Shown here: one piece after another, positions 6,263 through 64,000 of the stretch
Layout: each line of letters opens with the position of its first letter
Numbering within the stretch: position 1 is the stretch's first letter
Source of the DNA: Octopus vulgaris
Lineage: Eukaryota
Assembly (NCBI GenBank): GCA_951406725.2
Contig: OX597837.1
Coordinates: 28,086,001 to 28,150,000 of the forward strand
Length of the DNA stretch: 64,000 nucleotides
Direction: 5' to 3'
Program-made: the position numbers and the translations under genes
Notes under the pieces: model-generated
What the model was told of the DNA's origin: nothing
Databases searched by the model: none
What the model saw: the letters and a program-made list of their open reading frames with translations, nothing else

Positions 6263-6271
6263 TACCGATTG

Positions 6272-6321
6272 AAAATATGGAACGCTTCACGAATTTGCGT
6301 GTCATCCTTGCGTTGGGGGCC

Positions 6322-6354
<33 letters not shown>

Positions 6355-6378
6355 AATATGTACCACCGTAGCTAGTAT
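6272..6378 (-). pseudogene. U6: Full-length U6 snRNA copy, diverged (probable pseudogene)
   Basis: Reverse complement ...tacatattctaaaattggaacgatacagagaagattagcatggcccccaacgcaaggatgacacgcaaattcgtgaagcgttccatatttt matches metazoan U6, including the ACAGAGA box and AGC triad. Changes occur in the 5' stem-loop and ISL (cccctgcg to cccccaacg). Upstream is (TA)n plus a Helitron, with no recognisable PSE. Confidence 0.9.
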
Positions 6379-6391
6379 AGATATATATATA

Positions 6392-6885
6392 TCTATATAT
6401 ATAAAACTCTAGTTGTGTGAGTGTCTGTCCCCTTCGATTTAGATTCCTAACTCCTCCCACATTTTGCGGTGCAGTTTAACCAAACTCGGGTATCTTATAG
6501 TCGTGATTCATATCGAGCCCGTCTGGCTATTAGCGCGCGTCAACGATGAGTCTACGATTTTAAAAATAATTTAACATCATTTTTTATTCCATTTTAATGC
6601 ATAATTTTTCGTGTGTCGATGGCGGCGGAGTTGGCGTCCATGGTCACACCTGCACCTGTGTTGCTTCTCCCCTTCCCTCCCTCGTGAAGCTGTAGGGAAG
6701 GGAGTGTAAAGAAATCAACGTCGTAATGCGTTGTCAATGAGACCAGCGTTCTTTTAGAACGACTTCATGGCTTGAAGACACCAAAACAGAAATGGCTAAG
6801 AAAGCCCGAATTGGCATCTATAAGGGAAGTAACTCTCTAAAAATGCTTATATAGTTATTTCCTTACAAACCCGAGCAACGCCGGG

Positions 6886-6930: not shown

Positions 6931-6933
<3 letters not shown>

Positions 6934-7125
6934 GGAAAGTTCACGAAAGAAACAAAAGACGAAGACAGGTGATGTACAAAACAAACAGATGTATTAGTAT
7001 AACGCTCAGGAATAGAAAAAGTATTTTACGTTTCGAGCCTACGCTCTTCTACAGAAAGGGACACAGAAAGAAACAAGGAGAGAAAAAAATGTGTGTTGTG
7101 GCTAATGATCTATCATGGCGACTAG
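6931..7125 (-). mobile_element. Short Penelope-like (pLTR-type) element with hammerhead-like motif at 7058-7023
   Basis: Homologous over ~190 bp to 29295-29490 (opposite strand); contains ttt-CTGTAGA-A-GAGC-gtag-GCTC-GAAAC-GTA-aaa. Confidence 0.6.
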
Positions 7126-7311
7126 TGCCGGACAGAGGGGTCAGACAGGAGAGGGAAAGTAGGGGGTATATATATATAACGTATATATTTGTCGGAAAAC
7201 TTCTGATATGATGAAGTTTATAATATGCTTTTCACTTTACACCTTATATGCACATTCTGAATATTTTAATAACTTTTGTAACATGGTTATGACTGGGGCC
7301 TTTGAAAATTA

Positions 7312-29294: not shown

Positions 29295-29490
29295 GTCGCC
29301 ATGATAGATCGTTAGTCACTACACACATTTTTTTCTCTCCTTGTTTCACTCCTTGTTTTTTCTGTGTCCCTTTCTGTAGAAGAGCGTAGGCTCGAAACGT
29401 AAAAGACTTTTTCTATTCCTGAGCGCTATACTAAGACATCTGTTTGTTTTGTACACCACCTGTCTTTGTCTTTTGTTCGTAAACTCTCCC
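29295..29490 (+). mobile_element. Short Penelope-like (pLTR-type) element flanked by (TA)n
   Basis: Second copy of 6931-7125; carries the hammerhead-like motif followed by ttcctgagcg. Confidence 0.6.
29370..29405 (+). ncRNA. Minimal type I hammerhead-like ribozyme, A6U core variant
   Basis: cttt-CTGTAGA-A-GAGC-gtag-GCTC-GAAAC-GT-A-aaag: stem I cttt/aaag, stem II GAGC/GCTC, palindromic ACGT stem III, GUA cleavage triplet; activity untested. Confidence 0.55.
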
Positions 29491-29872: not shown

Positions 29873-30035
29873 GGCGTAGGAGTGACTGTGTGGTAAGTAG
29901 CTTGCTTACCAACCACATGGTTCCGGGTTCAGTCCCACTGCGTGGCATCTTGGGCAAGCGTCTTCTACTATAGCCTCGGGCCGACCAAAGCCTTGTGAGT
30001 GGATTTGGTAGACGGAAACTGAAAGAAGCCCGTCG

Positions 30036-30068
<33 letters not shown>

Positions 30069-30265
30069 TTGTCCCCCAACATCGCTGGACAACCGATGCT
30101 GGTGTGTTTAAGTCCCCGTAACTTAGCGGTTTGACAAAAGAGACAGATAGAATAAGTACTAGGCTTACAAAGAATAAGTCCCGGGGTCGATTTGCTCGAC
30201 TAAAGGCGGTGCTCCAGCATGGCCGCAGTCAAATGACTGAAACAAGTAAAAGAGTAAAGAGTAAA
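29873..30265 (+). mobile_element. SINE family A, full length
   Basis: ggcgtaggagtgactgtgtggtaag ... aacaagtaaaagagtaaagag. Confidence 0.88.
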
Positions 30266-36589: not shown

Positions 36590-36634
36590 TCATTGCGTTT
36601 CGGCTGTCGTGCACTCCAGCCTTCATCAGGTGTT
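36590..36634 (-). other. Decayed hammerhead motif (canonical core, cleavage side lost)
   Basis: aacac-CTGATGA-A-GGCTG-gagtgcacga-CAGCC-GAAAC-gcaatg; no GUH triplet or stem I partner. Confidence 0.5.
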
Positions 36635-44505: not shown

Positions 44506-45003
44506 GAATGACTGAAACAAGCAAAAGAATAAAGGAATAAATGAGAAGAGGAGAGAGAGAGAGGGAGAGAGATGTATTGGTATATTTGATTGGTAAACCT
44601 GTCAATCCATCGGTTTCTATTTAAATCCTTCTTTAAGGCTAAAGTAGGCCATTGTCATTCCTCTGTTCCATTTCCGTCTCATTGTTATTCCTCATCGTTT
44701 ATTCACTTTCATCCTCTGTCATTATATCAGTCCAGAGAACGACAAATACTTTTGTTATTCCTGATCGTTTATTCAATTCAATTCCATTACATTGTTAATC
44801 CGGCAGCACACAATGTTACATATTTTCGCAGCTGCATCCTCTCTAGCTTGGAAGACTTCAAAGGTAGGCTTCAATGCACATCAGCATCTATGTGAGTGTG
44901 TGTTTATGCGCCTGTACCTCTGTGTGTGCACGCTTCTGCCCTAACCGCTCTATGTGTGCCGGTGTGTTTGTATGTACTCCATTTTGACTGTGACATTTGG
45001 CAG

Positions 45004-45034
<31 letters not shown>

Positions 45035-45265
45035 ATATATGTGTGTGTGTGTATATATGTGTGTGTGTATATATGTGTGTGTGTATATATGTGTGTGTGT
45101 GTGTGTATGTGTATGTGTGTGTGTATATATATGTATATGTGTGTGTATATATATATGTGTGAGTGTGTGTATATGTGTGTGTATATATATATGTGTGAGT
45201 GTGTATATATAACTGAGTATATATATGTGTATATATATATATGTGTGTATAAACATGTGTATATG

Positions 45266-45302
<37 letters not shown>

Positions 45303-45388
45303 TTCTAATATAGGATAACATTTTTTTCCCCAAAAAATTTCATCAAAGTGGCAGCATATTAAAATACCTTTAAGGGTGAAAATTATAA

Positions 45389-45528
45389 ACAATTTATAAA
45401 CAAGGGCAAAAGAAAAAAGATTTCTATGCCAATATGCTGAGAATAGACTTAAATTGTCAATCATCACAAATCTATTCTCAGCATATTGCATAGAAATCTT
45501 TTTTCTTTTGCCCTTGTTTATAAATTGT
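45389..45528. repeat. Near-perfect inverted repeat, 59/58-nt arms, 23-nt loop (copy at 57112-57251)
   Basis: acaatttataaacaagggcaaaagaaaaaagatttctatgc(c)aatatgctgagaataga pairs with tctattctcagcatattgcatagaaatcttttttcttttgcccttgtttataaattgt. Confidence 0.92.
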
Positions 45529-45742
45529 ATGACTGTGGGTGTGGGTGTGTGGGTGTGTGTATATATATGTGTGTGTGCGTATATGTATGTGTGTGTATAT
45601 ATATATATGTATGTGTGTATATGTATGTGTGTATATATATATTGTGTGTGTATATGTATGTGTGTATATATGTATGTGTATATATATGTGTGTGTGTGTG
45701 TGTATATATATGTGTGTATGTGTGTGTGTGTATATATATATA

Positions 45743-45783
<41 letters not shown>

Positions 45784-45914
45784 GAGTAAATGTGTGTATA
45801 TGTATGTGTGTGTATATGTATGTGTGTGTATATATATGTATGTGTATATATATATATATGTATGTGTGTGTATATATATATATGTATGTGTGTATATATG
45901 TATGTGTATATATA

Positions 45915-45949
<35 letters not shown>

Positions 45950-45992
45950 GTGTATGTGCGTGTATATATATGTGTGTATATATATATATATA

Positions 45993-46034
<42 letters not shown>

Positions 46035-46323
46035 GAGTAAATGTGTGCAATTTTCGTAGTTCCTATGTAGAGACACAACCAAAACTATGCATTATAAAGA
46101 ACGAAACAGAGAGAATGAGAAACCGATAAACTAAGCGCACAACTATAAAACGTAGATACATCGGTGTAGTCCATGCGTTGATAATACACATAGAAATCTT
46201 TTACATGAAAACACTTTATATGTTCTTTTATAGACAACAGGGAATCGCTGTACACTACGTAACGAATGATTATTTAAAGATGTTTTATGTACGAGTATTG
46301 TATGCATGGGCGAATGAATAGCA

Positions 46324-46411
46324 ATGCTGAATTGGGAACAACGTCGTATTAGAATTTGCTCCCATTCAGCGGGACTTTGGGCAGGTTTATTCTATTTTGG
46401 ACTAATATCTG
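46324..46411 (+). CDS. Candidate first coding exon encoding a signal-peptide-like N-terminus (product unknown)
   Basis: MLNWEQRRIRICSHSAGLWAGLFYFGLIS+G|GTGAGT (phase 1); upstream acceptor tgttcttttatag at 46233; unique sequence; no homology recognised. Confidence 0.33.
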
Positions 46412-46762
46412 GTGAGTGGAATTTTATAGATATTACTGTACAGGGCCCTTCGTGTATGTGTATACACACTTATACACACAGAACCAATATTTTTATAATC
46501 AGCTCAGTGTGATATCACAGATATTGCCTATATATACTCCTTGTTCTTTACTCTTTTACTTGTTTCTGTCATTTGACTGCGGCCATGCTGGAGCACCGCC
46601 TTTTAGTCGGGCAAATCGACCCCAGGACTTATTCTTTAAAAGCCTAGTACTTATTCTATCGGTCTCTTTTGCCGAACCGCTTTTGCCGAACGTAAACACA
46701 CCAGCATCGGTTCTCAAGCGATGTTGGGGAGGGGGGAGGAGGAGACAAACACAGACGCACAA

Positions 46763-46801
<39 letters not shown>

Positions 46802-46925
46802 AAATATAATATAAATAATATATAAATATATGCATATATACATACATATATGTATTTACCTACATCTGTATGTATATATACATGCATATATGGGTACATT
46901 GAACACAATGAGAAACGAAAAAACA

Positions 46926-46965
<40 letters not shown>

Positions 46966-47061
46966 GCACATATATACACGCGTACACATATATACAGACA
47001 CATATACACAAATTGCGCGCGCGAGCACACACCCGTATCTTATATATATATATATATATAT

Positions 47062-47650
47062 ACGTAGGAGTGGCTGTGTGGTAAGTAGCTTGCTAACCAA
47101 CCACATGGTCCCGGGTTCAGTCCCATTGCGTGGCATCTTGGGCAAGTGTCTTCTGCTATAGCCCCGGGCCGACCAATGCCTTGTGAGTGGATTTGGTAGA
47201 CGGAAACTGAAAGAAGCCTGTCGTATATATATATATATGTATGTGTGTGTTTGTGTGTCTGCTGTGTTTGTCCCCCTAGCATTGCTCGACAACCGATGCT
47301 GGTGTGTTTACGTCCCCGTCACCTAGCGGTTCGGCAAAAGAGTCCGATAGAATAAGTACTGGGCTTACAAAGAATAAGTCCCGGGGTCGAATTGCTCGAC
47401 TAAAGGCGGTGCTCCAGCATGGCCGCAGTCAAATGACTGAAACAAGTAAAAGAGTAAAAGAGTAAAGAGAGTATATATATATATATACATACGACGGGCT
47501 TCTTTCAGTTTCCGTCTACCAAATCCACTCACAAGGCTTTGGTCGGCCCGAGGCTGTAGTAGAAGACACTTGCCCAAGGACTCACGCAGTGGGACTGAAC
47601 CCGGAACCATGTGGTTGGTAAGCAAGCTACTTACCACACAGCCACTCCTA
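47062..47650. mobile_element. SINE family A full copy (+) followed by an inverted head (-)
   Basis: 47062-47470 plus strand; 47492-47650 reverse complement of the head. Confidence 0.85.
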
Positions 47651-47947
47651 TGTTAAAGAAACATCAAATTATCAAAAATAAATAAATAAATAAATAGATA
47701 AATAAATTTTGTTTTGCAAATGTTTGTGTGCACGCGCGCGCGCGCATCTATGTGCGTATAAGGCGTTGGTTATTTCCATATTGAACCACAACGGACATCT
47801 GTCTCGGTGCCAATAACGGGATGTTTTGGTGCTTTGAGATCGGCCAAATATAGAATTCCAATGGCCATAGATTGCAAGTGTCGTAGAACACATGCAAACC
47901 GCGTCAACTGTGTATATGTGTGTGTGTATATGTGTGTGTGTGTAGTG

Positions 47948-47980
<33 letters not shown>

Positions 47981-48388
47981 GAGTGCGCGCACATTTGTGT
48001 ATACATGTGTGTGTGTGTACGTGTGTGTGTGCGCGCATGGTTGTGTATACGTGTTTGTGTGCGTGCGCGCGTACGTTTGTGTATACGTGTGTGTGTGTGT
48101 GTGTGTGAGCGCGTTTGTGTATGTGTGTATGTGCGTGCGCGCGCGTTTGTGTATACGTGTGTGCGTATGCGCGCGTTGGTGTATACGTGTGTGTGTGTGT
48201 GTGCACGCGTTTGTGTATGTATGTGTATATATGTGTGCGCGTGTGTATATATGTGCGTGTGAGTGTACATGTGTAAGTATGTGTATATAGTGCATATATG
48301 TGCATGTATATATGTGCGTATGTGTGTATATAACATATATAATATATATATATGTGCATGTATATATGTGCGTATGTGTGTATATAAC

Positions 48389-48421
<33 letters not shown>

Positions 48422-48998
48422 GTGCGCGTGTATATATGTGTGCATGTATGCATGTATACATGTATCTATCTATATATATATATATATATATGTGCATGTG
48501 TGTGTATTTATATTTGCGTATGTATATGCGTGTGTATACATATATAAAACAAATCCACCTTCGTACACAGAGACCACCTCATACGCAAACGCGATTACGT
48601 CGTAGTTCTCCCCATCCGACCCCCAACCCCGTCCCACTCCGAATTAAACGCATGCGTATACGTATATTCCAGAAAGCCAAGATTTATGTGAATGTCGCTG
48701 ATAATTGAGATCCGGAAACTCAGACAAGCTGATGGGAATAAAATCGATACAAAAATATACACCCGGCGATCAAATAACGCTCGTTTTAATTTGCACACGC
48801 TCAAACGTATCGTTATGGAATTATGTAGCAATTGTAAACATGTTGGCGCAGGAGTGGCTGTGTGGTAAGTAGCTTGCTTACCAACCACATGGTTCCGGGT
48901 TCAGTCCCACTGCGTGGCACCTTGGACAAGTGTTTTCTACTATGGCCTCGGGCCGACCAAAAGCCTTGAGTGGATTTGGAAACTGGATGAAGTCCATC

Positions 48999-49045
<47 letters not shown>

Positions 49046-50865
49046 TAAGGGTAGAAATTGATATTTATCAATTAAGACCAGTGGTCTAGCATATTAAAAA
49101 AAAGAATCCGTAGATGGTAACTTAATTTATCGACCCCGAAAGGATGAAAGGTAAAGTCAACCTCGGCGGAATTTGAACTCAGAACGCAATGCCAGATGAA
49201 ACACGGCTACGCATTTCGCCCGGCGTGCTAACGTTCCTGCCATATATTAGAGTGTTCAGAAACCACTATATGGATACCCATATGCTAGAAATATATCCGC
49301 AAATTGAGATAGGGGCTGTAAATGCAACCCTCCATGGGATAACATATATCCAATTATGTACACTGATTTGTTCTGCTTTTTATATTTAACCCTACAGTCT
49401 CTTATGTGGTGGTTTAATAAAGTATGTGATTGAGTATTATCTGGTAATTGATATTTGATTTAGATGTATTTCTCCGTTTTCTTATCTTGTATATATATAT
49501 ATATATATATTAGAGGGAAACCACTATGTGGACACCCATATGCTAGAAATAAATCCGCTACGGTCTCACCACTAAGAAATGTTCTCAAGAAAAATTTAGC
49601 AAAACAACCAAAACGTAATTGAGTGGGTGTCCACATAGTGGATTCTCTCTAATACAATTTTACTGAACCTTCAGTTTTTTTTATGCTAGACCACTGGTGT
49701 GAAATCGATGTTAATTAAATTAATATCTAATTTCTCACCATCATTTTAAATTTATATATATATATATATGTTTGTGTGTCTGTGTTTTCCCCCCGACATT
49801 GCTTCACAACCGATGCTGGTGTGTTTACGTCCCCGTAACTTAGCGGTTCAGCAAAAGAGACCGATAGAATAAGTACTAAGCTAACAAAAAATAAGTCCTG
49901 GGGTCGATTTGCTCGACTGAAGGCGGTGCTCCAGCATGGCCGCAGTCAAATGACTTATTCTATCGGTCTCTTTTGCCGAACCGCTAAATTATGGGGACGT
50001 ATACACACTACCATCGGTTGTCAAGCGATGTTGGGGGGACAAAATACAGACACACAAACATGTATATATACATATATACGACGGGCTTCTTTCAGTTTCC
50101 GTCTACCAAATCCACTCACAAGGCTTTGGTCAGCCCGAGGCTATAGTGGAAGACACTTGCTCAAGGTGCCACGCAGTGGGACTGAACCTGGAACCATGTG
50201 GTTGGTAAGCATACTACTTACCACACAGCCACTCTGTCTGTGTTTGTCACCCCCAAACATCGCTTGACAACCGATGCTGGTGTGTATACGTCCCCATAAT
50301 TTAGCGGTTCGGCAAAATAGACCGATAGAATAAGTACTAGGCTTACAAAGAATAAGTCCTGCGGTCGATTTGCTCGACTAAAGGCGGTGCTCCAGCATGG
50401 CCGCAGTCAAATGACTGAAACAAGTAAAAGAGTAAAAGAGAGGAACACAAAACTTTGGACATTGAACTCCAACACATTCATTAAGTTTCTGCTGATAACT
50501 TGACCGTTTCCTTCTCTTACATTGGTCTCTGAACAGCTGGAATGCTGTGCGACCCACATAATCTGACCACCACGGCGTAAACGCTAAAACTCTGTCGTCA
50601 TTCCAACACTACAATCGAAAAGAATGAACAACGGATACGTATTCCACACACTCACACACATTTGGTGTCAGTATTCGTTTCTCAATCTACACACATGACT
50701 TCAGCATTGCTTCAAAGATTAATACATATGTAATCCTATTGTTTTCAATATTGTACGCTTTCTCCTTTTACATAATATTACTTTTGTATTAGAAGGTATC
50801 GTGACTTGGTTCACGTTTTATGATTACATATCTACCTGTCTGCCGTTCTATATACGTGTCTTCGT

Positions 50866-51251
50866 GGAGGCGCAATGGCCCAGTGGTTAGGGCAGCGGAC
50901 TCGCGGTCATAGGATCGCGGTTTCGATTCCCAGACCAGGCGTTGTAAGTGTTTATTGAGCGAAAACACCTAAAGCTCCACGAGGCTCCGGCAGGGGATGG
51001 TGGTGATCCCTGCTGTACTCTTTCACCACAACTTTCTCTCACTCTTACTTCCTGTTTCTGATGTATCTGTATTTCAAAAGGGCCGGCCTTGTCACTCTCT
51101 GTGTCACGCTGAATATCCCCGAAGAACTACGTTAAGGGCACACGTGTCTGTGGAGTGCTCAGCCACTTACACGTTAATTTCACGAGCAGGCTGTTCCGTT
51201 GATCGGATCAACCGGAACCCTCATCGTCGTTACCGACGGAGTGCTTCCACC
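50866..51251 (+). mobile_element. SINE family C (duplicate at 62346-62731)
   Basis: TSD atacgtgtct(t/g)cgt. Confidence 0.88.
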
Positions 51252-51549
51252 ATACGTGTCTGCGTATATATATATATATATATATATATGAGAGCGAGAT
51301 GTATAGGTGCAGACATGGCTACGTGGTTAGCAAGTTCACTTTGGAACTAAGTAGGTCAGGGGTCAGCTCCAGTGCGCAGTATTTTGGGCAAGTGTCTTCT
51401 ACGATATCTTTCGAGTTGACAAATGCCTTGTGAGCGAATTTGATAGACAAAAATTGTGTGGAAGCCTGTTATACATCCAATCATATACACACACATACAT
51501 ATACATCTAAACATATGCATACACATACAGGTACACAAACATAGACACA

Positions 51550-51592
<43 letters not shown>

Positions 51593-51782
51593 GGAGTGCT
51601 TCCATTATACCTACCACCTCCTACACCCAGATGCTTGGATGTCTCCCCCTTTCAACATGCTTCACTGTCTCTCTGTTGTCCTGTTTCTAACCCTTTGGCA
51701 TATTCATCCTGGATTTAACGATATTTTCCTCACCTGTGAAGCCCTAAGACCATATTCTGTCAATCTATTTGTTCCTTTGGAG

Positions 51783-52861: not shown

Positions 52862-53272
52862 TAGGTGCAGGAGTGGCTGTGTGGTAAGTAGCTTGTTTAC
52901 CAACCACATGGTTCCGGGTTCAGTCCACTGCGTGGCACCTTGGGCAAGTGTCTTCTGCTATAGCCCCGGGCCGACCAAAGCCTTGTGAGTGGATTTGGTA
53001 GACGGAAACTGAAAGAAGCCCGTCGTATATATGTATATATATATATGTATGTGTGTGTGTTTGTGTGTCTGTGTTTGTCCCTCTAGCATTGCTTGACAAC
53101 CGATGCTGGTGTGTTTACGTCCCCGTCACTTAGCAGTCCGGCAAAAGAGACCAATAGAATAAGTACTGGGCTTACAAAGAATAATAAGTCCCGGGGTCGA
53201 TTTGCTCGACTAAAGGCGGTGCCCCAGCATGGCCACAGTCATATGACTGAAACAAGTAAAAGAGTAAAAGAG
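52862..53272 (+). mobile_element. SINE family A, full length
   Basis: Family similarity. Confidence 0.88.
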
Positions 53273-53553: not shown

Positions 53554-53650
53554 GTTAATCCAAACAAGAAAACACAGAAAAAAACACAGCAACGCGAGGA
53601 CGTGGAACAATTAAAGTATTATTTGACGCTCAGGAAAGAAGGGAAGGAGG

Positions 53651-53685
53651 GTTTAACGTTTCGAGCGGAGCTCTTCGTCGGAAAC
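53651..53685 (-). ncRNA. Minimal type I hammerhead ribozyme, U4C core variant, inside a Penelope-like short element (~53550-53730)
   Basis: gttt-CCGACGA-A-GAGC-tcc-GCTC-GAAAC-GT-T-aaac: stem I gttt/aaac, stem II GAGC/GCTC, palindromic ACGT stem III, GUU triplet; downstream ttcctgagcgt shared with the 7023 and 29370 elements. Confidence 0.65.
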
Positions 53686-53765
53686 AAAGATAAGGAAAGA
53701 TCCCAAGAAGGGAAGACAGAGGAAAAAAATATATTTGCTGGTGGTGCTCAAGAGATCACATGTTG

Positions 53766-53821
<56 letters not shown>

Positions 53822-55427: not shown

Positions 55428-56816
55428 AATGATGAGACCTGGTCCCTACAGATCCCGTCTACCCCATGTCTTGGTCTTAACTGAAGACGAATCGTGTGTG
55501 TAAGAGGGACACTGTCAAGCAATATCTATTTCTTTATTGCCCACAAGTGGTTAAATATAGAGGGGACAGATAAACGGATTTTGTCGATTACATCGACCCC
55601 AGTGCGTAACTGGTACTTATTTAATCGACCCCGAAAGGATGAAAGGCAAAGTCGACCTCGGCAGAATTTGAACTCAGAACGTAGCAGCAGATGAAATACC
55701 TATTTCTTTACTACCCACAAGGGGCTAAACACAGAGAGGGCAAACAAGGACAGACAAACGGATTAAGTCGATTATATCGACCCCTTTCGGAGTCGATTAA
55801 ATAAGTACTAGTTACGCACTGGGGTCGATGTAATCGACTTAATCCGTTTGTCTGTCAATGTTTGCCTTCTCTGTGGTTGGCCCCTTGTGGGTAGTAAAGA
55901 AATAGGTATTTCCTCTGCCGTTACGTTCTGAGTTCAAATTCCGCCGAGGTCGACTTTGCCTTTCATCCTTTCGGAGTCGATTAAATAAGTACCAGTTACG
56001 CACTGGGGCCGATATAATCGACTTAATCCGTTTGTCTGTCATTGCTTGCCCTCTCTGTATTTGGCCCCTTGTGGGTAGTAAAGAAATAGGTATTTCGTCT
56101 GCCGTTACGTTCTGAGTTCAAATTCCGCCGAGGTCGACTTTGTCTTTCATCCTTTCGGAGTCGATTAAATAAGTACCAGTTACGCACTGGGGTCGATATA
56201 ATCGGCTTAATCCGTTTGTCTGTCCTTGTTTGTCGAATGACTGAAACAAGCAAAAGAATAAAGGAATAAATGAGAAGAGGAGAGAGAGAGAGAGAGAGAT
56301 GTATTGGTATATTTGATTGGTAAACCTGTCAATCCATCGGTTTCTATTTAAATCCTTCTTTAAGGCTAAAGTAGGCCATTGTCATTCCTCTGTTCCATTT
56401 CCGTCTCATTGTTATTCCTCATCGTTTATTCACTTTCATCCTCTGTCATTATATCAGTCCAGAGAACGACAAATACTTTTGTTATTCCTGATCGTTTATT
56501 CAATTCAATTCCATTACATTGTTAATCCGGCAGCACACAATGTTACATATTTTCGCAGCTGCATCCTCTCTAGCTTGGAAGACTTCAAAGGTAGGCTTCA
56601 ATGCACATCAGCATCTATGTGAGTGTGTGTTTATGCGCCTGTACCTCTGTGTGTGCACGCTTCTGCCCTAACCGCTCTATGTGTGCCGGTGTGTTTGTAT
56701 GTACTCCATTTTGACTGTGACATTTGGCAGTATATATGTATATATATATATGTGTGTGTGTATATATGTGTGTGTGTGTATATATGTGTGTGTGTATATA
56801 TGTGTGTGTATATATA

Positions 56817-56847
<31 letters not shown>

Positions 56848-56986
56848 GTATATATATGTGTATATGTGTGTGTATATATATATGTGTGAGTGTGTGTATA
56901 TGTGTGTGTATATATATATGTGTGAGTGTGTATATATAACTGAGTATATATATGTGTATATATATATATGTGTGTATAAACATGTG

Positions 56987-57025
<39 letters not shown>

Positions 57026-57387
57026 TTCTAATATAGGATAACATTTTTTTCCCCAAAAAATTTCATCAAAGTGGCAGCATATTAAAATACCTTTAAGGGT
57101 GAAAATTATAAACAATTTATAAACAAGGGCAAAAGAAAAAAGATTTCTATGCCAATATGCTGAGAATAGACTTAAATTGTCAATCATCACAAATCTATTC
57201 TCAGCATATTGCATAGAAATCTTTTTTCTTTTGCCCTTGTTTATAAATTGTATGACTGTGGGTGTGTGGGTGTGGGTGTGTGTATATATATGTGTGTGTG
57301 CGTATATGTATGTGTGTGTATATATATATATGTATGTGTGTATATGTATGTGTGTATATATATATATATATATGTATGTGTGTATAT

Positions 57388-57431
<44 letters not shown>

Positions 57432-57740
57432 ATATGTATGTGTGTGTGTATATATATATATATGTATGTGCGTATATATATATGTATGTGTGTATATGTA
57501 TGTGCGTATATATATATGTATGTGTGTATATGTATGTGCGTATATATATATATGTATGTGTGTATATGTATGTGTGTATATATATATATATATATGTATG
57601 TGTGTATATGTATGTGTGTGTATATGTATGTGTGTGTATATGTATGTGTGTGTATATATATATATATGTGTATATATATATATATGTATGTGTGTGTATA
57701 TATATATATGTATGTGTGTATATATGTATGTGTATATATA

Positions 57741-57777
<37 letters not shown>

Positions 57778-57804
57778 GTGTATGTGCGTGTATATATATG
57801 TGTG

Positions 57805-57865
<61 letters not shown>

Positions 57866-58593
57866 GAGTAAATGTGTGCAATTTTCGTAGTTCCTATGTA
57901 GAGACACAACCAAAACTATGCATTATAAAGAACGAAACAGAGAGAATGAGAAACCGATAAACTAAGCGCACAACTATAAAACGTAGATACATCGGTGTAG
58001 TCCATGCGTTGATAATACACATAGAAATCTTTTACATGAAAACACTTTATATGTTCTTTTATAGACAACAGGGAATCGCTGTACACTACGTAACGAATGA
58101 TTATTTAAAGATGTTTTATGTACGAGTATTGTATGCATGGGCGAATGAATAGCAATGCTGAATTGGGAACAACGTCGTATTAGAATTTGCTCCCATTCAG
58201 CGGGACTTTGGGCAGGTTTATTCTATTTTGGACTAATATCTGGTGAGTGGAATTTTATAGATATTACTGTACAGGTCCCTTCGTGTATGTGTATACACAC
58301 TTATACACACAGAACCAATATTTTTATAATCAGCTCAGTGTGATATCACAGATATTGCCTATATATACTCCTTATTCTTTACTCTTTTACTTGTTTCTGT
58401 CATTTGACTGCGGCCATGCTGGAGCACCGCCTTTTAGTCGGGCAAATCGACCCCAGGACTTATTCTTTAAAAGCCTAGTACTTATTCTATCGGTCTCTTT
58501 TGCCGAACCGCTTTTGCCGAACGTAAACACACCAGCATCGGTTCTCAAGCGATGTTGGGGAGGGGGGAGGAGGAGACAAACACAGACGCACAA

Positions 58594-58632
<39 letters not shown>

Positions 58633-58756
58633 AAATATAATATAAATAATATATAAATATATGCATATATACATACATATATGTATTTACCTACATCTGT
58701 ATGTATATATACATGCATATATGGGTACATTGAACACAATGAGAAACGAAAAAACA

Positions 58757-58796
<40 letters not shown>

Positions 58797-59776
58797 GCAC
58801 ATATATACACGCGTACACATATATACAGACACATATACACAAATTGCGCGCGCGAGCACACACCCGTATCGTATATATATATATATATATATATACGTAG
58901 GAGTGGCTGTGTGGTAAGTAGCTTGCTAACCAACCACATGGTCCCGGGTTCAGTCCCATTGCGTGGCATCTTGGGCAAGTGTCTTCTGCTATAGCCCCGG
59001 GCCGACCAATGCCTTGTGAGTGGATTTGGTAGACGGAAACTGAAAGAAGCCTGTCGTATATATATATATATGTATGTGTGTGTTTGTGTGTCTGCTGTGT
59101 TTGTCCCCCTAGCATTGCTCGACAACCGATGCTGGTGTGTTTACGTCCCCGTCACCTAGCGGTTCGGCAAAAGAGTCCGATAGAATAAGTACTGGGCTTA
59201 CAAAGAATAAGTCCCGGGGTCGAATTGCTCGACTAAAGGCGGTGCTCCAGCATGGCCGCAGTCAAATGACTGAAACAAGTAAAAGAGTAAAAGAGTAAAG
59301 AGAGTATATATATATATATACATACGACGGGCTTCTTTCAGTTTCCGTCTACCAAATCCACTCACAAGGCTTTGGTCGGCCCGAGGCTGTAGTAGAAGAC
59401 ACTTGCCCAAGGACTCACGCAGTGGGACTGAACCCGGAACCATGTGGTTGGTAAGCAAGCTACTTACCACACAGCCACTCCTATGTTAAAGAAACATCAA
59501 ATTATCAAAAATAAATAAATAAATAAATAGATAAATAAATTTTGTTTTGCAAATGTTTGTGTGCACGCGCGCGCGCGCATCTATGTGCGTATAAGGCGTT
59601 GGTTATTTCCATATTGAACCACAACGGACATCTGTCTCGGTGCCAATAACGGGATGTTTTGGTGCTTTGAGATCAGCCAAATATAGAATTCCAATGGCCA
59701 TAGATTGCAGATGTCGCAGAACACATGCAACCCCGCGTCAATTGTGTATATGCGTCGGTGTATATGTGTGTGTGTG

Positions 59777-59807
<31 letters not shown>

Positions 59808-60757
59808 GTATATATATACACATATATATATATATGAGTGCGCGCACGTTTGTGTATATGTGTGTGTGCGCGCGCGTACGTTTGTGTATACGTGTGTGTG
59901 TGTGTGTGTGAGCGTTTGTGTATACGTGTGTGTGCGTGCGCGCGCGTTTGTGTATACGTGTGTGCGTATGCGCGCGTTGGTGTATACGTGTGTGTGTGTG
60001 TGTGCACGCGTTTGTGTATGTATGTGTATATATGTGTGCGCGTGTGTATATATGTGCGTGTGAGTGTACATGTGTAAGTATGTGTATATAGTGCATATAT
60101 ATGCATGTATATATGTGCATGTATATATGTGCATGTATATATGTGCGTATGTGTGTATATAACATATATAATATATATATATATATAAGTGCGCGTGTAT
60201 ATATGTGTGCATGTATACATGTATCTATCTATATATATATATATATATATGTGCATGTGTGTGTATTTATATTTGCGTATGTATATGCGTGTGTATACAT
60301 ATATAAAACAAATCCACCTTCGTACACAGAGACCACCTCATACGCAAACGCGATTACGTCGTAGTTCTCCCCATCCGACCCCCAACCCCGTCCCACTCCG
60401 AATTAAACGCATGCGTATACGTATATTCCAGAAAGCCAAGATTTATGTGAATGTCGCTGATAATTGAGATCCGGAAACTCAGACAAGCTGATGGGAATAA
60501 AATCGATACAAAAATATACACCCGGCGATCAAATAACGCTCGTTTTAATTTGCACACGCTCAAACGTATCGTTATGGAATTATGTAGCAATTGTAAACAT
60601 GTTGGCGCAGGAGTGGCTGTGTGGTAAGTAGCTTGCTTACCAACCACATGGTTCCGGGTTCAGTCCCACTGCGTGGCACCTTGGACAAGTGTTTTCTACT
60701 ATGGCCTCGGGCCGACCAAAAGCCTTGAGTGGATTTGGAAACTGGATGAAGTCCATC

Positions 60758-60796
<39 letters not shown>

Positions 60797-63029
60797 ATAT
60801 TTCTTTATTGCCCACAAGGGGCTAAACACAGAGGGGACAAACAAGGACAGACAAACGGATTAAGTCGATTACATCGACCCCAGTGCGTAACTGGTACTTA
60901 ATTTATCGACCCCGAAAGGATGAAAGGTAAAGTCAACCTCGGCGGAATTTGAACTCAGAACGCAATGCCAGATGAAACACGGCTACGCATTTCGCCCGGC
61001 GTGCTAACGTTCCTGCCATATATATATTAGAGGGAAACCACTATATGGATACCCATATGCTAGAAATATATCCGCTACGGTCTCACCACTAAGAAATGTT
61101 CTCAAGAAAAATTTAGCAAAACAACCAAAACGTAATTGAGTGGGTGTCCACATAGTGGATTCCCTCTAATACAATTTTACTGAACCTTCAGTTTTTTTTA
61201 TGCTAGACCACTGGTGTGAAATCGATGTTAATTAAATTAATATCTAATTTCTCACCATCATTTTAAATTTATATATATATATATATGTTTGTGTGTCTGT
61301 ATTTTTCCCCCCGACATCGCTTGACAACCGATGCTGGTGTGTTTACGTCCCCGTAACTTAGCGGTTCAGCAAAAGAGACCGATAGAATAAGTATTAAGCT
61401 TACAAAGAATAAGTCCTGGGGTCGATTTGCTCGACTGAAGGCGGTGCTCCAGCATGGCCGCAGTCAAATGACTTATTCTATCGGTCTCTTTTGCCGAACC
61501 GCTAAATTATGGGGACGTATACACACTACCATCGGTTGTCAAGCGATGTTGGGGGGACAAAATACAGACACACAAACATGTATATATACATATATACGAC
61601 GGGCTTCTTTCAGTTTCCGTCTACCAAATCCACTCACAAGGCTTTGGTCAGCCCGAGGCTATAGTGGAAGACACTTGCTCAAGGTGCCACGCAGTGGGAA
61701 TGGACCCGGAACCATGTGGTTGGTAAGCCAAGCTACTTACCACACAGACACTCTGTCTGTGTTTGTCTGTGTATACGTCCCCATAATTTAGCGGTTCGGC
61801 AAAATAGACCGATAGAATAAGTACTAGGCTTACAAAGAATAAGTCCTGGGGTCGATTTGCTCGACTAAAGGCGGTGCTCCAGCATGGCCACAAGTCAAAT
61901 GACTGAAACAAGTAAAAGAGAGTAACACAAAACTTTGGACATTGAACTCCAACTCTTTCATTAAGTTTCTGCTGATAACTTCACCGTTTCTTTCTCTTAC
62001 ATTGGTCTCTGAACAGCTGAAACGCTGTGCGACCCACATAATCTGACCACCACGGCGCAAACGCTAAAACTCTGTCGTCATTCCAACACTACAATCGAAA
62101 AGAATGAACAACGGATACGTACTCCATACACTCACACACATTTGGTGTCAGTATTCGTTTCTCAATCTCCACACATGACTTCAGCATTGCTTCAAAGATT
62201 AATACATATGTAATCCTATTGTTTTCAATATTGTACGCTTTCTCCTTTTACATAATATTACTTTTGTATTAGAAGGTATCGTGACTTGGTTCACGTTTTA
62301 TGATTACATATCTACCTGTCTGCCGTTCTATATACGTGTCTTCGTGGAGGCGCAATGGCCCAGTGGTTAGGGCAGCGGACTCGCGGTCATAGGATCGCGG
62401 TTTCGATTCCCAGACCAGGCGTTGTAAGTGTTTATTGAGCGAAAACACCTAAAGCTCCACGAGGCTCCGGCAGGGGATGGTGGTGATCCCTGCTGTACTC
62501 TTTCACCACAACTTTCTCTCACTCTTACTTCCTGTTTCTGATGTATCTGTATTTCAAAAGGGCCGGCCTTGTCACTCTCTGTGTCACGCTGAATATCCCC
62601 GAAGAACTACGTTAAGGGCACACGTGTCTGTGGAGTGCTCAGCCACTTACACGTTAATTTCACGAGCAGGCTGTTCCGTTGATCGGATCAACCGGAACCC
62701 TCATCGTCGTTACCGACGGAGTGCTTCCACCATACGTGTCTGCGTATATATATATATATATATATATATGAGAGCGAGATGTATAGGTGCAGACATGGCT
62801 ACGTGGTTAGCAAGTTCACTTTGGAACTAAGTAGGTCAGGGGTCAGCTCCAGTGCGCAGTATTTTGGGCAAGTGTCTTCTACGATATCTTTCGAGTTGAC
62901 AAATGCCTTGTGAGCGAATTTGATAGACAAAAATTGTGTGGAAGCCTGTTATACATCCAATCATATACACACACATACATATACATCTAAACATATGCAT
63001 ACACATACAGGTACACAAACATAGACACA

Positions 63030-63072
<43 letters not shown>

Positions 63073-64000
63073 GGAGTGCTTCCATTATACCTACCACCTC
63101 CTACACCCAGATGCTTGGATGTCTCCCCTTTCAACATGCTTCACTGTCTCTCTGTTGTCCTGTTTCTAACCCTTTGGCATATTCATCCTGGATTTAACGA
63201 TATTTTCCTCACCTGTGAAGCCCTAAGACCATATTCTGTCAATCTATTTGTTCCTTTGGAGAAGGCGGCGAGCTGGCAGAAACGTTAGCATGTCGGGCGA
63301 AATGCTTTGCCGTATTTCGTCTGTCGCTACGTTCGAAGTTCAAATTCCGCCGAGGTCGACTTTGCCTTTCATCCTTTCGGGGTCGATAAATTAAGTACCA
63401 GTTACGCACTGGGTTCGATGTAATCGACTTAATCCCTTTGTCTGTCCTTGTTTGTCCCCTCTGTGTTTAGCCCCTTGTGGGTAGTAAAGAAATAGGCATT
63501 TCGTCTGCCGTTACGTTCTGAGTTCAAATTCCGCCGAGGTCGACTTTACCTTTCATCCTTTCGGGGTCGATAAATTAAGTACCAGTTACGCACTGGGTTC
63601 GATGTAATCGACTTAATCCCTTTGTCCGTCCTTGTTTGTCCCCTCTATGTTTAGCCCCTTGTGGGCAATAAAGAAATAGGTATTTCGTCTGCCACTACGT
63701 TCTGAGTTCAAATTCCGCCGAGGTCGACTTTGCCTTTCATCCTTTCGGGGTCGATAAATTAAGTACCAGTTACGCACTGGGTTCGATGTAATCGACTTAA
63801 TCCCTTTGTCCGTCCTTGTTTGTCTCCTCTGAGTTTAGCCCCTTGTGGGTAATAAAGAAATAGGTATTTGGTCTGCCACTACGTTCTGAGTTCAAATTCC
63901 GCCGAGGTCGACTTTACCTTTCATCCTTTCGGGGTCGATAAATTAAGTACCAGTTACGCACTGGGTTCGATGTAATCGACTTAATCCGTTTGTCCGTCCT
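55428..64000 (+). repeat. Copy 2 of the large direct duplication (alternative haplotype or recent segmental duplicate)
   Basis: Begins exactly at the gap edge; differs from copy 1 by microsatellite lengths, scattered SNPs and a few structural changes. Confidence 0.95.
58155..58242 (+). CDS. Duplicate of the candidate signal-peptide exon
   Basis: Same peptide and splice signals as 46324-46411. Confidence 0.3.

Follow-up and report, generated by a model that had tools for sequence, protein, structure and literature searches.

A hammerhead motif with U at core position 6, conserved across subfamilies of a Penelope-like retrotransposon in Octopus vulgaris

Here, we describe a Penelope-like retrotransposon lineage of Octopus vulgaris whose minimal type I hammerhead motif carries U instead of A at core position 6, a letter treated as invariant, while the rest of the motif is constrained, and whose sister family in the same genome combines the same stem II with canonical A6. 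We favor, with a probability of roughly one half, an attenuated ribozyme kept by selection, which is predicted to cut at a slow pace, tandem transcripts being the probable setting in which it acts as a dimer. Such a natural U6/A6 pair lets one ask whether Penelope-like elements (PLEs) need cleavage, cleavage tuned to a low rate, or the fold alone. The motif lies in a stretch of 64,000 nucleotides (the window; GenBank assembly GCA_951406725.2, contig OX597837.1, positions 28,086,001 to 28,150,000).

Results

A hammerhead variant in the window

The motif reads cttt-CTGTAGA-A-GAGC-gtag-GCTC-GAAAC-GT-A-aaag, letter for letter as a first-pass annotation of this DNA had it, with C3 at 29374, U6 at 29377 and H17 at 29401 (Table 1). 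It displays the structural features of the minimal PLE hammerhead: an extra nucleotide after A9, the G10.1-C11.1 pair, a palindromic stem III and an NUH triplet. Compared with the consensus core C3 U4 G5 A6 N7 G8 A9 / G12 A13 A14 A15 U16 H17, it fails at position 6 and keeps the remaining core positions, and because of this failure we class it as a hammerhead variant and not as a proven member. Rfam scans of the window, which included 29340-29440 at E ≤ 10, returned no hammerhead among the matches listed. As the annotation had anticipated, core-constrained searches miss the motif, and about 14,000 copies of it in the present genome alone escape descriptors fixed on CUGANGA.

The element is present twice in the window, as had been noted, and the motif of the second copy has a broken outer stem I pair. 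A copy of the sister family on the reverse strand reads GUUU-CCGACGA-A-GAGC-ucc-GCUC-GAAAC-GU-U-AAAC, with stem I GUUU/AAAC and the same stem II as the window motif; it departs from its own family by U4C, sister-family copies among the matches listed being mostly CUGACGA. The letters of the two motifs bear out the differences first described between them, namely that the outer stem I pair switches from C-G to G-C and loop II changes while stem II is kept.

Table 1 Features of the window related to the hammerhead motif
Feature	Position	Strand	Remarks
Minimal type I hammerhead motif	29370..29405	+	Stem I CUUU/AAAG, core CUGUAGA, extra A, stem II GAGC/GCUC with GUAG loop, GAAA, palindromic ACGU, GUA triplet
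Core position 6 = U (consensus A)	29377	+	Majority state in six of six subfamilies examined
Predicted cleavage site	29401/29402	+	After H17 (A here, U in other subfamilies); genomic 5' ends show no pile-up
5'-truncated copy of 3' pseudo-LTR, Neptune/Nematis-type Penelope-like element	29295..29490	+	Inserted in (TA)n/(CT)n/(CA)n microsatellite
Tail, predicted cut site to fixed 3' insertion end	29402..29490	+	Young copies: same end 103 nt past the cut site, then TATATAT at the unit-to-unit junction
Second truncated copy, same subfamily, slightly longer	6933..7166	-	Motif at 7023-7058
Sister-family copy (A6 core, 3-nt loop II)	53554..53767	-	Motif at 53651-53685; U4C in this copy

The host is a Penelope-like element

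Thirty close copies of the element have the same 3' end, which adjoins a (TA)n run, and vary in how far they reach on the 5' side; one of them has an inverted head-to-head partner. Going back from the 3' end, longer copies include a 3' UTR rich in C/T and C/A and, beyond it, coding sequence for a GIY-YIG domain, for the linker CSRPRCRTC and for an RT in which the motifs DKG and YIDD are present. Because the 3' ends are fixed and the longer copies run into the RT/GIY-YIG ORF, the supposed ~190-bp mini-element is the 5'-truncated end of an autonomous element. The proposal of a non-autonomous lineage thus did not hold, whereas the Penelope-like link made alongside it did. A retrozyme reading is rejected for the same reason, since the variable 5' ends are continuous with the RT-EN ORF.

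The young family of the element shows 87-89% identity and has open frames of up to 1,214 codons (protein search, 138 of 13,895 candidates scored). The 14 young copies that were read comprise pLTR-ORF-pLTR units of ~4.5 kb and one head-to-tail array; the motif is visible in 12 of the 14, with U6 in every case. In one young copy, a single ORF gives 1,080 amino acids from the first Met, with the DKG and YIDD motifs of a PLE-type RT. The C-terminal GIY-YIG follows a CX2-5CxxC linker, here of the form CX4CxxC (CSRPRCRTC, then NIIYCISCSLC..LYIGQT..RF.EH). Pfam matches on a decayed fragment fall under the curated cutoffs both for RVT_1 (E=8.4e-6, 26.1 bits against 29.6) and for GIY-YIG (E=8.3e-4, 20 bits against 22.6).

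Hammerhead-bearing pseudo-LTRs, partial tandems, 5' truncation and a (TA)n target are all Penelope-like traits. The linker with a C-terminal EN is described as the mark of the Neptune and Nematis clades (PMC8557442), and the window element is accordingly classed as an EN+ PLE of Neptune/Nematis type, the clade being given by linker and EN motifs and not by a tree. Like the elements of these clades (Craig 2021, PMC8557442), it has one ORF with RT followed by C-terminal GIY-YIG, partial tandem and inverted arrangements and (TA)n targets; unlike theirs, its hammerhead core is non-canonical.

The 3' end of the ORF differs with age. In young copies (L099, oriented ~6290-6650), the frame continues for ~120 codons past the end of GIY-YIG into the C/T-rich UTR, whereas older copies stop at GLNSP..FI, where the young frame reads on.

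U6 is the family state of the motif

A search of the genome (2.8 Gb, 227 contigs) with the 32-mer of the window motif, positions 6 and 7 left free, returned 3,625 exact matches and none for the reversed control. These two positions read TA in 94, CA in four, TT in one and AA in one of the first 100 of the 3,625 listed. As 94 of these 100 have the CUGUAGA core, A6U is a family trait and not damage to a single copy. The pattern in which N7 is not A gave a further 10,578 exact matches; among the first 100 of them listed, 96 carry U6 and 98 have A or U at H17, with U, C and G all represented at N7. Both patterns together, which overlap slightly, amount to about 14,000 exact core copies. A6 with the GUAG loop, by comparison, has 184 genomic matches only, and 30 such copies are scattered over all subfamilies and are mostly back-mutations. 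In a motif-blind sample of 105 copies, position 6 was U in 101, A in two, C in one and a gap in one. Copy-specific decay of A6 is thus rejected, as U6 dominates both the exact matches listed and the motif-blind copies.

Position 6 looks more heterogeneous in the oldest subfamily, in which the first 100 of 745 copies listed have 77 U, 14 C, 8 A and 1 G. C6 and A6 are above background there (p about 1e-4 to 6e-3), and early source elements may have been mixed at this position; linked diagnostic sites for a distinct A6 or C6 source subfamily were sought in 49 copies, and none was convincing. In contigs of three other organisms (three studies), A occupies position 6 in 0.2-0.8% of depth, contig depth not being equivalent to copy number, and N7 and H17 vary freely.

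Motifs that resemble the U6 type and have a different stem II produced 821 matches (control, 42). Reading 30 of these loci, we found mostly mutated copies of the window lineage and rejected them as separate lineages; the exceptions were two copies of an A6 family and three from a hairpin family that is unrelated and has G at position 17. The latter (L160, L162 and L166, motif at ~1500-1540) belong to a hammerhead-like repeat, CTGTTGAG-GTAG-cgaa-CCAC-GAAACGTGGTT, with a stem II mismatch and G17, which makes up about 12 of the 100 matches listed for the other-stem-II pattern. At two loci (L142 and L143, motif at ~1500-1530), U6 occurs with UUCG in place of the GUAG loop, forming a C(UUCG)G tetraloop, and both carry a change at 10.2; they are possibly a small old subfamily.

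The motif is constrained while its surroundings diverge

For the comparison across subfamilies, 216 copies were clustered on their flanks with a filter of at most six substitutions from the core, which drops truncated and badly decayed copies. The main comparison used the six subfamilies with at least six members, minus copies picked for carrying A6. Variation between the six consensuses affects 39 of 111 flank columns and, within the motif, none of the 30 constrained positions (Fisher p=1.8e-5). A motif-blind set was drawn from 90 of the first 100 matches listed for a pattern placed only downstream of the motif (7,706 matches). With motif-blind copies alone (105 copies, five subfamilies, one having been dropped for n=1), 42 of 111 flank columns vary and one of 30 motif positions does (p=9.5e-5), the sole motif change being a CpG change in a cluster of n=4.

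Divergence elsewhere in the element is considerable. The ORF DNA of the subfamilies, taken from decayed copies, differs by 10-23% from that of the young family, and differences in their flanks reach 29 of 108 sites. The window subfamily and the young subfamily differ at 52 of 304 four-fold sites, a rate at which zero change across 30 positions has p=0.004, and their motifs differ at N7 and H17 only. A copy of the oldest subfamily that is ~77% identical to the young ORF DNA still reads CUGUUGA.

N7 and H17 are also the only motif positions that vary between the six consensuses. N7 takes all four letters across copies; H17 is A or U in every consensus and never G, an avoidance based on just one or two source-element changes. 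The chance that two varying positions of 36 would be exactly those that a hammerhead leaves free is about 1 in 630.

Cross-subfamily conservation of this kind indicates that the motif is not a dead one decaying neutrally. In keeping with this, the idea that a dead ribozyme was carried along neutrally by a source element that happened to succeed, for which the seemingly looser position 6 of the oldest subfamily could be cited, is largely refuted and very improbable, given that the motif was conserved while ORFs and flanks diverged. Conservation at the level of DNA deserves separate consideration. Further short blocks of the pLTR are conserved as well (GAGCG, CTAATACA and CTGTCTTCGTC), and promoters are reported to reside in PLE pLTRs (PMC6765202), so the motif could be an internal pseudo-LTR promoter element whose hammerhead look is a leftover. 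However, an invariant block of 36 nt is long for a factor-binding site, the stem pairs are compensated against relatives, and the free variation falls precisely on N7 and H17; we therefore regard a promoter element as decidedly improbable.

Sister family, relatives and the direction of change

The sister family has canonical A6, the same stem II and a 3-nt loop II. Among the matches listed for a pattern with other loops (7,056 matches), a three-nucleotide loop goes with A6 in 71 of 73 and a four-nucleotide loop with U6 in 27 of 27. In 17 sister-family copies, inspection of the 1.5 kb on the upstream side revealed no ORF. We also scanned 80 metagenome loci with related ORFs (28-69% identity). 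Canonical CUGANGA was present in seven, in two of which the motif lies ~146 nt behind the ORF end and has stem I CGCU/AGCG; one further locus has UUGAUGA, two weak two-mismatch matches are probably due to chance, and a CUGU core was found at none of the 80. Since the sister family and the relatives from other organisms carry canonical A6 with a compensated stem I, U6 is the derived state.

In a hand-picked alignment of 15 rows, 94% of cells pair and six of eight pairs change on both sides, which upholds the structural covariation claimed by the first-pass annotation. As the rows are related, the alignment supports homology and structure and is not a significance test, its shuffle figures not being probabilities. 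An extended stem I compensation (GUC/GAC versus GUA/UAC) was considered and is unsupported: each of the two changes is present, but in the copies that were read they are for the most part not linked.

Several further observations concern the two families. Chimeric copies (L213:1430-1625 and L443:1440-1540, in motif orientation) have an A6 sister 5' flank joined inside the hammerhead to a U6-family 3' part, which suggests template switching or recombination at the common motif. A TTCCYGAGCG block ~20 nt past the cut site (window 29416-29427, and 53620-53635 on the reverse strand) is common to both families and complementary to the 3' strand of stem II; its predicted pairing is 0.83 in the sister copy and 0-0.04 in U6 copies. 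Another hammerhead-like motif, CUGAUGA-A-GGCUG-loop-CAGCC-GAAAC-GC-A at window positions 36590-36633 of the reverse strand, appears to be a degraded member of one more family, which has a canonical core and a 10-nt loop II and also occurs at L152, L169 and L176.

Genomic traces of cleavage

If cleavage products served as templates, genomic copies could begin at the cut site. None of the 44 mappable copies among 49 long young copies examined has its 5' end there: 31 continue through the 5' motif, reaching 239-1,272 nt upstream, and the other 13 begin 12-1,160 nt downstream. In most long copies, reverse transcription went on without a break across the upstream motif. For short copies, 89 matches flank the cut-site window and 57 flank a control window in loop II. 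Reading 30 loci of each gave 10 and 16 true truncations, respectively, or about 30 in each set, and intact downstream anchors are similarly frequent (28 of 90 and 24 of 90). As the estimated truncations are about equal, there is no excess of cleavage-defined ends. Contigs of runs guessed to be RNA cover the motif without ends, which speaks neither for nor against cleavage, and raw DNA runs gave 7 and 80 reads.

The absence of cut-site ends is moderate evidence against cleavage, and only moderate, because a PLE hammerhead that cuts in vitro, that of Poseidon PAc, likewise left no RNA ends at its site (Frangieh 2024, PMC11167929). The first-pass annotation had left a choice between an unusual active core and a dead but retained fold; neutral decay drops out of this choice, and genomic traces of an active core were not found.

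Those same data bear on the idea that some other factor (the GUAG loop, dimer geometry, Mn2+ or a protein of the element) makes up for U6, so that the motif cuts about as well as canonical PLE hammerheads and re-ligated circles are the templates. The youngest subfamily keeps U6 with no reversion, the more-than-unit insertions (31 of 44) fit circular templates, and the PAc precedent makes missing ends weak evidence. Against this, no second core change able to compensate occurs among the subfamily consensuses, CUGA mutants were rescued only by a C3-G8 swap in the relevant passages of a deep scan (PMC9901934), and linear cut products would yield ~100-nt insertions from the cut site, of which no excess is seen. 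Full compensation is, in our assessment, improbable.

Folding of the motif

In the isolated motif, stem II is predicted with a probability of 1.0, and the hammerhead register of stem I is not predicted; in a longer context, the probability of stem I is near 0. U6 permits the pairs U4-G16.2, G5-C15.2 and U6-A15.1, which would form an extended rod. For the G5-C15.2 pair of this rod, the predicted probability is 0.86 when position 6 is U and 0.10-0.45 in three natural copies with A6. In the predicted rod, C3 and U16.1 have no partner, yet both are fixed. Thermodynamic co-folding gave an extended duplex and no double hammerhead, by a method that is unable to test the dimer model.

The main rival to an attenuated ribozyme is a fold that does not cut and is kept as an RNA signal (a binding site for the RT/EN protein, a folding switch or a translation element), possibly as the U6-stabilised rod. 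The pairing preference of U6 and the lack of a genomic trace of cleavage are in its favor, as is the association of U6 with the GUAG tetraloop among the matches listed, as if the element had been remodelled once. Cleavage was, moreover, dispensable in vitro for another PLE, insertion by the Poseidon element being unimpaired in dead HHR mutants (PMC11167929). A pure RNA signal, however, gives no account of why the varying positions are just the two that hammerhead chemistry leaves free, why C3 and U16.1 are fixed though unpaired in the rod, or why H17 stays A or U. We consider it possible, if the less probable of the two.

Discussion

Considering (i) the lack of a 5'-end pile-up, (ii) the slow cleavage published for changes in the CUGA turn and (iii) the predicted hairpin favored by U6, efficient cleavage by the motif is hard to sustain. 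Slow cleavage by an attenuated ribozyme, on the other hand, fits constraint on every core position except the one that lowers the rate, and we give about even odds to a motif that still cuts RNA, but slowly, in a lineage in which A6U became fixed at an early stage and the remainder of the motif has been preserved.

We propose the following model for an attenuated ribozyme. The endonuclease would nick (TA)n, and the RT would prime at an internal UAUAUAU ~103 nt 3' of the cut site, paired to the target; in six young copies, the 3' end of the element and the unit-to-unit junction both read CCCGT and then TATATAT, 103 nt past the cut site. The RT would then copy back through the hammerhead, the UTR and the ORF, and in many cases past the length of a single unit. 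If a template were cut at the 3' hammerhead, it would lose its priming site and give a copy of only ~100 nt unless re-ligated, so slow cleavage would cost little and might help. U6 would weaken the CUGA turn and add the U6-A15.1 pair, favoring the inactive rod; most templates would therefore stay whole, and the cut minority would release units from long read-through transcripts, or circles.

A bolder extension is that A6 is not obligatory, a working CUGUNGA core having evolved with compensation by the GUAG loop, dimer geometry, a metal ion or an element protein, and U6 acting as a switch between rod and active fold, by which the moment of cleavage would be set with respect to reverse transcription. 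This is unlikely, but if it were true, fixed-core searches would miss a whole class of abundant active ribozymes.

Minimal PLE hammerheads are known to cut weakly and as dimers or multimers (Cervera and de la Pena 2014, PMC4209133). The motif resembles these metazoan examples in its presence in both pLTRs, short stem I, extra nucleotide between A9 and 10.1, G10.1-C11.1 pair, palindromic 15.2-16.2 without loop III, presumed dimer cleavage and thousands of single truncated copies. It differs in its core, CUGUNGA instead of CUGANGA; the core variant described in that work is U3-A8, and CUGUUGA and CUGUAGA are absent from the searched text of its supplement. We found no natural A6U hammerhead in the literature searched; the PLE variants of Lunse, Weinberg and Breaker 2016, outside that search, may cover position 6, and the introduction and early results of PMC11014351 hold no information on it.

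The closest natural precedent is the A6C hammerhead of phage Bcep176, which has low activity and cleaves in Mn2+ (Perreault 2011, PMC3088659; Naghdi 2020, PMC7151607). In one construct, A6C lowered k_obs from 0.3 to 3.55e-6 per min at 0.3 mM Mg2+ (PMC7151607). Both are natural changes at position 6 with the remaining core intact. The phage motif, however, has C6 at a single locus and was tested, being slow in Mg2+ and better in Mn2+, whereas the U6 motif is a putative ribozyme whose change is fixed over ~14,000 copies and several subfamilies. The passages used from the deep scan report low activity for single mutants of the CUGA turn, the value for A6U itself lying outside them (PMC9901934).

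With respect to the element's replication, the lineage is similar to Poseidon PAc in having a presumed internal RT start 3' of the hammerhead, in unprocessed RNA apparently being the main template and in lacking cut-site ends (PMC11167929). PAc differs in that its core is canonical and shown to cut and in that it primes without target homology, while the 3' end here lies at an internal TATATAT that would match the (TA)n target. Naiads spread without canonical HHRs, and the role of the hammerhead in PLEs is described as an open question (PMC8557442). Metazoan non-LTR retrozymes also carry a type I hammerhead related to that of PLE pLTRs (bioRxiv 10.64898/2026.07.22.740005), but they are non-coding tandem repeats, unlike the truncated ends of a coding element described here.

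Other features of the window

A repeat lies beside the element at window positions 29875-30200, which we take to be SINE-like, and part of it recurs at about 53100-53270. A near-identical long duplication spans about 44700-51600 and 56400-63100, at an offset of about 11.5-11.8 kb, in a window that contains 100 N; it is either a tandem duplication or an assembly artefact. A U6 snRNA copy at 6271-6378 on the reverse strand (Rfam RF00026, 91.6 bits) shows a few departures from the consensus and is possibly a retro-copy.
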